Program-made: the position numbers and the translations under genes
The notes under the pieces: generated by a model
Told to the model about the DNA's origin: nothing
The model's database searches: none
Seen by the model: the letters and a program-made list of their open reading frames with translations, nothing else
In this document: piece by piece, positions 1 to 1,434 of the stretch
How positions within the stretch are numbered: position 1 is the stretch's first letter
Layout: each line of letters opens with the position of its first letter
Assembly (NCBI RefSeq): GCF_003334385.1
Contig: NZ_QOWN01000112.1
DNA from: Escherichia coli
Lineage (GTDB): Bacteria; Pseudomonadota; Gammaproteobacteria; Enterobacterales; Enterobacteriaceae
Strand: one strand, 5' to 3'
Length of the DNA: 1,434 bases

Positions 1-77
1 AACGCGAGGCATCGTCTTAACGAGGCACCGAGGCGTCGCATTCTTCAGATGGTTCAACCCTTAAGTTAGCGCTTATG
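1..77 (-). mobile_element. Partial end of an IS186-like (IS4-family) insertion sequence. The 23-bp terminal inverted repeat is at 55-77 with the tip at 77 abutting cynT; the element body continues beyond the left window edge.
   Basis: Positions 55-77 are the reverse complement of CATAAGCGCTAACTTAAGGGTTG, which I recall as the IS186 terminal IR. Positions 1-79 are the perfect reverse complement of 1356-1434. The CynT reading frame departs from the expected protein exactly at the tip. The subterminal 1-54 is not recognisable as a host gene. Confidence 0.6.
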
Positions 78-605
78 GGCGATCCGCCCCTCTTCGAGCG
101 CCAGGCGCACCGATGGATGAGTTTGCAAATTAGCCAACTGAGCAATGACGTTTTCACGTACCATCGCCGCAGCTTTTGACGGTAAATCGGAATGCGGGCG
201 CGCCTCATTAACGACGCGGGCTGAATCGGCATAACGCAGCCAGTGGGAGACGGCAGGCATATGGTCCATGCACTGACAGCTGGCAATGGCGGTCATCGCG
301 CCACAGTTGGAATGACCACAAATCACAATGTCAGATACCCGAAGCGCAGCGACGGCATACTCCACCGAAGCAGAAACGCCACCGGGTTCCGGCCCGTAGG
401 AAGGGACGATATTGCCCGCGTTGCGAATAACGAACAGATCGCCAGGCTCACGTTGCGTCACCAGCTCAGGGACCAGACGGCTGTCGGAGCAGGAGATAAA
501 AAGTGTGCGCGGGCTTTGCTGTGTCGCCAGCTGTTTAAACAAGGCTTCCCGCTTCGGAAATGCCTCGCGCTGGAATTTAAGGAATCCATCAATAATCTCT
601 TTCAC
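66..605 (-). CDS. cynT: Beta-class carbonic anhydrase CynT, 3'-truncated by the element junction (probable pseudogene). Native codons span 78-605 (176 codons); the last three codons (His-Lys-Arg) and the stop at 66-68 are read from the element end.
   Basis: The translation [30 protein letters not shown]... matches E. coli CynT as I recall it up to ...LALEEGRIA, then diverges (expected continuation LHGWVYDIESG..., full length about 219 aa). Zinc-ligand motifs CSDSR and HSNCG are retained. The start codon is GTG at 603-605 (- strand) with an AGAGG Shine-Dalgarno about 6 nt upstream (+ coordinates 611-615). Confidence 0.88.
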
Positions 606-713
606 CGTTAACCTCTGTCTGTCTCTGGAATGAGAGGCAGACTACTCGCCGATTGTCATAAGGTAAAAGTCTCATTTATGATGAGTTCCATTGGATTTAC
701 TTATAGGTTGCGA
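606..713. promoter_or_regulatory. cynR-cynT divergent intergenic control region (108 bp), expected to hold the overlapping divergent promoters and the CynR operator.
   Basis: The region lies between the divergent start codons of cynT (605, -) and cynR (714, +). LysR-type regulators typically bind in such regions and autoregulate. It is AT-rich relative to the flanking coding DNA. Confidence 0.55.
653..682 (+). promoter_or_regulatory. Candidate sigma70 promoter for cynR: -35 TTGTCA (653-658), 18-bp spacer, -10 TATGAT (677-682). It overlaps the dyad TCATAA (656-661) / TTATGA (676-681), a possible CynR operator half-site pair.
   Basis: Hexamers match the consensus TTGACA/TATAAT at 5/6 each with 18-bp spacing. 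The predicted transcription start is about 25 nt upstream of the cynR ATG at 714. The 6-bp inverted repeat with 14-bp spacer overlaps the promoter, as expected for LysR autoregulation. Sequence inspection only. Confidence 0.3.
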
Positions 714-1418
714 ATGCTCTCTCGACATATCAATTATTTTCTTGCCGTGGCTGAACATGGCAGCTTCACCCGTGCCGCCAGTGCGTTGCACGTCTCCCAA
801 CCTGCGCTTTCCCAGCAGATTCGCCAGTTAGAGGAGAGTTTAGGCGTGCCGCTGTTTGACCGTAGCGGGCGAACGATTCGTCTCACTGATGCAGGAGAAG
901 TCTGGCGACAGTACGCCAGCCGGGCGTTACAGGAACTGGGGGCGGGTAAACGGGCGATTCATGATGTTGCCGATCTGACGCGAGGATCGCTGCGTATCGC
1001 CGTCACCCCCACCTTTACGAGCTACTTTATCGGCCCCTTAATGGCGGATTTCTATGCGCGCTATCCCAGCATCACGCTCCAGCTACAGGAAATGTCGCAG
1101 GAGAAAATCGAGGATATGCTTTGCCGCGACGAGTTGGACGTTGGGATTGCCTTCGCGCCTGTGCATTCGCCGGAGCTGGAGGCAATTCCTTTACTGACAG
1201 AAAGTTTAGCGTTAGTCGTGGCGCAACATCATCCGCTGGCCGTCCATGAACAGGTGGCGTTGAGTCGCTTGCATGATGAAAAACTGGTCCTGCTCAGCGC
1301 GGAATTTGCCACCAGAGAGCAAATTGACCACTACTGCGAGAAAGCGGGGCTACATCCCATAAGCGCTAACTTAAGGGTTGAACCATCTGAAGAATGCGAC
1401 GCCTCGGTGCCTCGTTAA
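714..1418 (+). CDS. cynR: LysR-family transcriptional regulator CynR (cyn operon activator), 3'-truncated by the element junction (probable pseudogene). Native codons span 714-1358 (215 codons), followed by a 19-aa tail ([19 protein letters not shown]) and stop at 1416-1418 read from the element end.
   Basis: The translation from ATG 714, [50 protein letters not shown]..., is a typical LysR N-terminal helix-turn-helix and matches E. coli CynR as I recall it through ...[10 protein letters not shown]. The expected continuation is QVVIEANSISAV..., full length about 299 aa. An AGG lies 6-9 nt upstream of the ATG. The ORF-track start at 630 is an in-frame upstream extension that I reject. Confidence 0.88.
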
Positions 1419-1434
1419 GACGATGCCTCGCGTT
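1358..1434 (+). mobile_element. Partial end of an IS186-like (IS4-family) insertion sequence. The 23-bp terminal inverted repeat is at 1358-1380 with the tip at 1358 abutting cynR; the element body continues beyond the right window edge.
   Basis: CATAAGCGCTAACTTAAGGGTTG at 1358-1380. Positions 1356-1434 are the perfect reverse complement of 1-79. The CynR frame departs from the expected protein exactly here. The subterminal region carries three direct GCCTCG copies (1401-1406, 1409-1414, 1425-1430). Confidence 0.6.

Follow-up and report, generated by a model that had tools for sequence, protein, structure and literature searches.

IS186 inserts at 5'-GGGG(N6/N7)CCCC-3', a motif with only 54 occurrences in the K-12 genome; either orientation is used, and some of the sites hit depart from the motif by one or two mismatches (Lee et al. 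2016, PMC5009759). In mutation-accumulation data the element shows no bias towards nearby sites, and the hotspots named for it are fimA and menC, with cyn not among them (PMC5009759). The only paper we found in the literature to name both IS186 and cynR is an unrelated CRISPR-transposase engineering study. Two further systems share the general layout described below: Tn10/IS10 and Tn5/IS50 (IS4 family), in which a segment is likewise bracketed by inverted copies of one element, and the single-copy regions of chloroplast genomes, which lie between inverted repeats.

We analysed a 1,434-nt stretch of Escherichia coli DNA, hereafter the window, in which about 1.28 kb of cynT-cynR DNA lies between two inverted IS186 ends. 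This arrangement had been read as that of a composite transposon, or of an intermediate in an IS-mediated inversion or deletion. Our analysis suggests that the window most probably records two independent IS186 insertions at hotspots in one E. coli genome, on a contig cut where the repeated element collapsed during assembly. The features of the window, in order of position, are as follows.

1 to 77, plus strand: last 77 nt of an IS186 copy whose transposase would read towards the window; identical to the full copies of strains E308 (L001) and SCU-104 (L002)
55 to 77, minus strand: IS186 terminal inverted repeat, 23 nt, with its tip at 77; exact match
66 to 605, minus strand: truncated cynT (carbonic anhydrase), stop codon at 66-68; from the list of open reading frames, 100% to K-12 cynT
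78 to 88, no strand: cynT target DNA GGCGATCCGCC, an 11-bp target-site duplication in a simple insertion (L004)
606 to 713, no strand: divergent intergenic (promoter) region between cynT and cynR, intact; colinear 100% match to K-12
714 to 1418, plus strand: truncated cynR (LysR-type activator), stop codon at 1416-1418; from the translation
1348 to 1357, no strand: cynR target DNA GGCTACATCC, a 10-bp target-site duplication in a simple insertion (bridged copies)
1358 to 1380, plus strand: 23-nt terminal repeat of the second IS186 copy; exact match
1358 to 1434, minus strand: last 77 nt of the second IS186 copy, the same end as 1-77 but reversed; from the repeat search and comparison with the E308 copy

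A repeat search across the whole 1,434-nt window revealed that positions 1-79 are the exact reverse complement of 1356-1434 (79 nt, 100%, 1276 nt apart), and found no further repeats besides this pair. The 23-nt IS186 terminal repeat CATAAGCGCTAACTTAAGGGTTG is present in exactly two copies, at 55-77 on the minus strand and at 1358-1380 on the plus strand, for a chance expectation of 0 in the window (200 shuffles), and in both copies the tip points towards cyn. IS186 DNA makes up 77 nt of each 79-nt arm (1-77 and 1358-1434), and the GG at 78-79 and the CC at 1356-1357 are cyn target DNA, not element. These two dinucleotides are complementary, and the repeat is thus 79 rather than 77 nt long, because the targets of IS186 are G-rich on one side and C-rich on the other. 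The exact terminal repeat, together with 77 of 77 matching nucleotides at each end, identifies the element as IS186/IS421, full copies of which are named IS4-like element IS421 family by PGAP.

We then compared both arms with the full IS186 copy of E308 (L001, 1339 nt), whose own two ends are alike as an inverted repeat for 23 nt only. Both arms correspond to the same end of this copy across all 77 nt and, since bases 24-77 differ between the two ends of IS186, the same end faces cyn on both sides. In annotated genomes about 170 nt separate the transposase stop codon from this inward-facing end downstream of it, so that both copies read towards the cyn segment: in the orientation of window 1-77 the full copy of SCU-104 has its transposase on the plus strand, and in that of window 1358-1434 the full copy of E308 has it on the minus strand. 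Since a single copy cannot present the same end at both junctions, the window requires at least two copies that are inverted relative to each other.

The DNA between these ends is native. K-12 MG1655 and other wild-type genomes match window 77-1357 at 100%, colinearly and in a single piece, and the 1,280 nt that separate the two IS186 ends consist of cynT codons 1-176, the divergent promoter region and cynR codons 1-215. Native cynT codons 1-176 of 219 occupy 78-605 and are followed by three element-encoded codons (HKR); native cynR codons 1-215 of 299 end at 1357 and are followed by 19 element-encoded codons. The annotation of the cynR::IS186 allele in E308 is of a cynR without its C-terminus. 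Judged from these reading frames, the cyn operon would be inactivated twice, once through a truncated activator and once through a truncated cynT with the element upstream of cynS and cynX. The cynT start codon at window 603-605 is GTG, as it is in K-12, which is 100% identical there. Taken together, these comparisons bear out the structural part of the original prediction: the arms are exact reverse complements, the 23 bp nearest cyn are IS186 terminal repeats with their tips towards it, the same element end stands at both junctions, and two oppositely oriented copies enclose about 1.28 kb of cynT-cynR DNA. That DNA is colinear with an intact reference cyn region.

Both breakpoints coincide with near-consensus IS186 targets. 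The wild-type 4.3-kb cyn locus contains no perfect IS186 motif and six matches with one mismatch, of which three lie in or at the edges of the stretch covered by the window. These three correspond to two places, which are the two breakpoints: the cynT site AGGGCGATCCGCCCC departs from GGGG(N7)CCCC at a single position and is counted in both the N6 and the N7 reading, and the cynR site GGGGCTACATCCAC departs at a single position from GGGG(N6)CCCC. They are the sole one-mismatch motif sites within the DNA equivalent to window 77-1357. The window thus resembles the described hotspot insertions in its element, in its kind of target (one mismatch each), in the use of either orientation at a site and in its duplication lengths, a core of 6 or 7 bp plus 2 bp on each side giving 10 or 11 bp (PMC5009759). 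It differs from them in having two insertions 1.28 kb apart on one contig, a combination present in 0 of 5,426 finished E. coli genomes.

Each insertion is found singly elsewhere. Of the 5,426 finished E. coli genomes, 10 carry the cynR junction in the orientation of the window and 4 carry it in the opposite orientation, so that the cynR site GGGGCTACATCCAC is occupied by IS186, in both orientations, in at least 14 of them. The identity of the cyn DNA across this set ranges from 98.5 to 100%, which argues for several independent events, and the cynR site is a natural hotspot that IS186 strikes repeatedly. A single finished genome, SCU-104, has the cynT junction. The cynR::IS186 allele of E308 (NZ_CP030281.1) and nine other genomes matches window 77-1434 base for base, and the cynT::IS186 allele of SCU-104 likewise matches window 1-1357; these genomes carry one insertion only, whereas the window carries both. 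No finished genome among the 5,426 has both junctions in any combination of orientations, and a genome with both insertions would have outranked every match listed in that search.

Full IS186 copies at these two sites in other genomes measure 1339-1340 nt, and long contigs that bridge a single insertion (n = 10) show how it is usually joined to its surroundings. Simple insertions account for eight of the ten, the duplication being 10 bp long at cynR and 11 bp long at cynT. At cynR the same 10 bp, GGCTACATCC, flanks full copies in L001, L013 and L015-L019; at cynT the same 11 bp stands on both sides of a full 1340-nt copy in L004, the duplication in bridged simple insertions being GGCGGATCGCC. 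In the other two (L002 and L014) the far side is rearranged and carries foreign DNA without a matching duplication. The cynR-site copy of L019 (GCA_000460275.1, KE701649.1, 10645-12088) is 1,444 rather than 1,339 nt long, with 105 nt extra, and its transposase is called in fragments.

We therefore favour the following course of events for the window, the steps of which are reconstructed from the junctions. One IS186 copy would have inserted by ordinary transposition at the near-consensus cynT target, after codon 176, and the other would have inserted independently at the near-consensus cynR target, after codon 215. As the copies are inverted relative to each other, each would face the segment with the end that follows its transposase gene. 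A k-mer (de Bruijn graph) assembler working on short reads would then have stopped 77 nt into each copy of the multi-copy element. Both copies would be full length and lie in one genome, their outer flanks would be what remains of cynT and of cynR, and the assembler would have set the ends of the window. Two full insertions with duplications would also give partner junctions outside the window, predicted to read ...CCGTGCAGGGCGATCCGCC joined to CATAAGCGCTAACTTAAGGGTTGTGGTA on the 3' side of cynT, and TACCACAACCCTTAAGTTAGCGCTTATG joined to GGCTACATCCACAGGTGG on the 3' side of cynR.

The ends of the window fit this account. Only 77 nt of each copy are visible, probably because the assembler collapsed the repeated IS186, and the window is best read as a complete contig: a unique edge of the graph, both ends of which run into one collapsed repeat, in opposite orientations. 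Other short-read contigs that enter IS186 at these sites stop at a depth that varies with the k of their assembler, 136-137 nt in k141 contigs and 50-51 nt in another scaffold set; the window stops 77 nt in on both sides, and its own ends share 79 nt. As different IS186 junctions share the first few flanking bases, stops a few bases short of k would be expected. SPAdes and MEGAHIT have 77 and 79 among their default k values, and the window ends appear to fit a graph assembler with k of about 77-81, with k = 79 or a path-extended SPAdes-type assembly at k = 77 fitting about equally. The stop at 77 nt was also considered as proof of SPAdes at k = 77 and was rejected as such, a pure k = 77 unitig being expected to stop 2 nt earlier. 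Single-copy regions of chloroplast genomes provide a parallel, in that their contigs start and end on the same repeat, reversed, and would be compatible with both orientations of the segment. Unlike the chloroplast case, the repeat in the window is a multi-copy insertion sequence, and each end could join the flank of any copy.

The form of the ends also bears on whether the two junctions come from one genome. Each junction is found alone in many public assemblies, and a contig from a mixed culture or a metagenome could in principle join junctions from different cells or molecules artificially. In such a mixture, however, the wild-type allele of the other strain would be expected to fork the graph at the boundary between cyn and IS186 and to yield contig ends without IS bases, whereas the window carries 77 nt of IS186 at both ends. 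Two strains with one insertion each would need contradictory abundance ratios for their wild-type forks to be pruned, which argues for both insertions in one genome and makes an artificial junction highly improbable.

A route through a single insertion can also be drawn, in which one IS186 copy undergoes intramolecular replicative transposition of the inversion type into a neighbouring target, in one step. Worked through by hand, the geometry of strand transfer would place the same end on both sides and would give the same four short-range junctions; the product would differ from that of two insertions in having the segment flipped relative to its surroundings. IS10 and IS50 of the IS4 family move by non-replicative cut-and-paste, and IS186, as a member of that family, would be expected to do the same as its studied relatives. 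The absence of a bias towards nearby sites in the mutation-accumulation data (PMC5009759) also speaks against such a step, as does the fact that the cynT and cynR sites have each been struck independently in other genomes. We regard this one-step origin as very improbable.

The proposal of a composite transposon has a formal basis, as the same element lies inverted on both sides of the segment and identical 23-nt repeats would be available at the outer ends; the two IS186 ends that bracket the 1,280 nt are of the same type, and both copies are presumably complete. Against a working unit that has moved, or could move, as one via its two outer ends stands the nature of the segment, which is native cyn DNA whose breakpoints fall precisely on two chromosomal IS186 target sites, each of them struck singly elsewhere, and a cargo that consists of two truncated genes without selectable function. 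Unlike Tn10 and Tn5, the window has no sign of movement as a unit, it holds two broken native genes, and its outer ends lie outside it. Because the breakpoints are native near-consensus sites that are hit singly in other genomes, usually with a duplication, movement as a unit is unsupported.

Searches of mobile DNA agree with this. On plasmids the 1,280-nt core was found only as intact wild-type cyn, on seven laboratory-culture plasmids of 214-242 kb, which we take to be K-12 F-prime plasmids, and in five megabase records, which are probably mislabelled chromosomes. The core is absent from 50,697 phage records, and no IS186-cyn-IS186 unit transposed to a new locus was found among the 5,426 finished genomes, the plasmids and the phages searched. 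A working composite transposon is thus extremely improbable. Of the earlier reading, the formal layout of a composite transposon stands, while its implication of movement, or of an inversion or deletion intermediate, finds no sign in these native, colinear breakpoints. The window is most probably an ordinary double knockout by IS186, not a new mobile element, and what is new here is the combination of alleles, produced by a well-known element at a known kind of target.

One group of plasmid matches was considered as moved cyn DNA and rejected. These matches run across the left junction at 89% identity and belong to a different IS186 copy, in a phage baseplate gene: p276M-CTX-M-55 (L030, NZ_CP044294.1, 13457-16538), presumably a phage-like plasmid, and about 18 similar plasmids of about 90-165 kb carry a frameshifted IS186/IS421 in that gene. 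The flank of this copy, GGGAGAGATCCCCGCC, resembles the cynT target, which is why megablast ran 28 nt across the junction at that identity.

Under two independent insertions, 1.34-kb inverted repeats would flank the 1.28-kb segment, and homologous recombination between them could flip it; short reads cannot distinguish the two orientations. We consider it very unlikely that the segment, with its divergent cynR/cynT promoters, is a recombination-driven invertible cassette or a mobilisable composite unit, or that the repeated hits at cynR in unrelated E. coli reflect selection against cyanate metabolism rather than target preference.

Recombination with IS186 copies elsewhere deserves more weight. 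After the two insertions, at least one of the copies may have recombined with another IS186 in a large inversion or deletion, in which case the DNA outside the window would not be native cynT or cynR. Such an event has occurred in SCU-104 (NZ_CP053284.1), the sole finished genome with the cynT junction of the window, where an inversion of about 3 Mb runs through that very copy. Comparison of the two loci (L002, 4021256-4028612; L034, 1043991-1051090) places the inner half, with the 5' part of cynT, cynR and codA, at 4.024 Mb beside iap and a CRISPR repeat, and the outer half, with the 3' part of cynT, cynS, cynX and lacA, at 1.047 Mb beside cysH and a hok gene. The inversion lies between two inverted IS186 copies, neither of which has a matching target duplication. 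A second case is L014 (GCA_047262435.1, JBHJLX010000001.1, 10645-12000), in which the cynR-site IS186 lacks a duplication and has an invasin-like gene and the ykgR region beyond it. The far side of this copy also carries rpmE2 and the ecp region, and comparison with the order of genes in K-12 suggests that the codBA-prp side was lost in an IS-adjacent deletion. Strains with these insertions also hold many IS186 copies, at 18-40 end matches per chromosome. On the other side of the balance, 8 of the 10 bridged examples are simple insertions in their native context, and the sequence of the window is itself silent on rearrangement in either direction. We consider a recombined outer flank unlikely, though clearly conceivable; it is a variant of the two-insertion explanation and not a true alternative to it.

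We also searched a public assembly index with the fusion proteins that the two insertions create. The 179-aa cynT-IS186 fusion product was found in 140 blocks of the index and the 234-aa cynR-IS186 fusion product in 103 blocks. In all the fusion-protein contigs that were read, the neighbouring gene (cynR or cynT) is intact. A 224-aa cut-off product, the form expected in small-k assemblies, was used to look for further contigs with a double junction. Searches of the index with the fusion proteins and with this product found no second assembly in which a single contig carries both junctions. A 1,320-nt contig (L033) that encodes both a 179-aa and a 224-aa product was examined as a second such case and rejected, its left end being wild-type cynT and its length a coincidence.

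Within the index, the cynT fusion lies solely on contigs shorter than 2 kb in 100 of its 140 blocks; for the cynR fusion this holds in 8 of 103. The search with the 224-aa product showed that hidden contigs with a double junction do not account for these short contigs.

The biological import of the window is small: it is a further case of IS186 at sequence-defined hotspots, here twice in one operon and with the predicted loss of cyanate utilisation. Its practical lesson concerns assemblies. Contig ends that are reverse-complementary over about k bases mark a unique segment between inverted copies of a repeat, and such a contig should not be called a transposon without long reads. IS186 copies at the cyn sites do also seed large rearrangements, as exemplified by the inversion of about 3 Mb in SCU-104.

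Scanning a collection of species-representative genomes for the 23-nt repeat yielded only seven stretches, none of them from cyn. Exact IS186 ends were observed on small contigs labelled Marinobacter, Collinsella (MAG), Chloroflexi (MAG), Kocuria and Bradyrhizobium (L024-L029), and their presence in assemblies with these labels is probably due to E. coli contamination. The Kocuria contig among them (L028, 210 nt) is a loop, with a period of 83 nt, of one IS186 junction.
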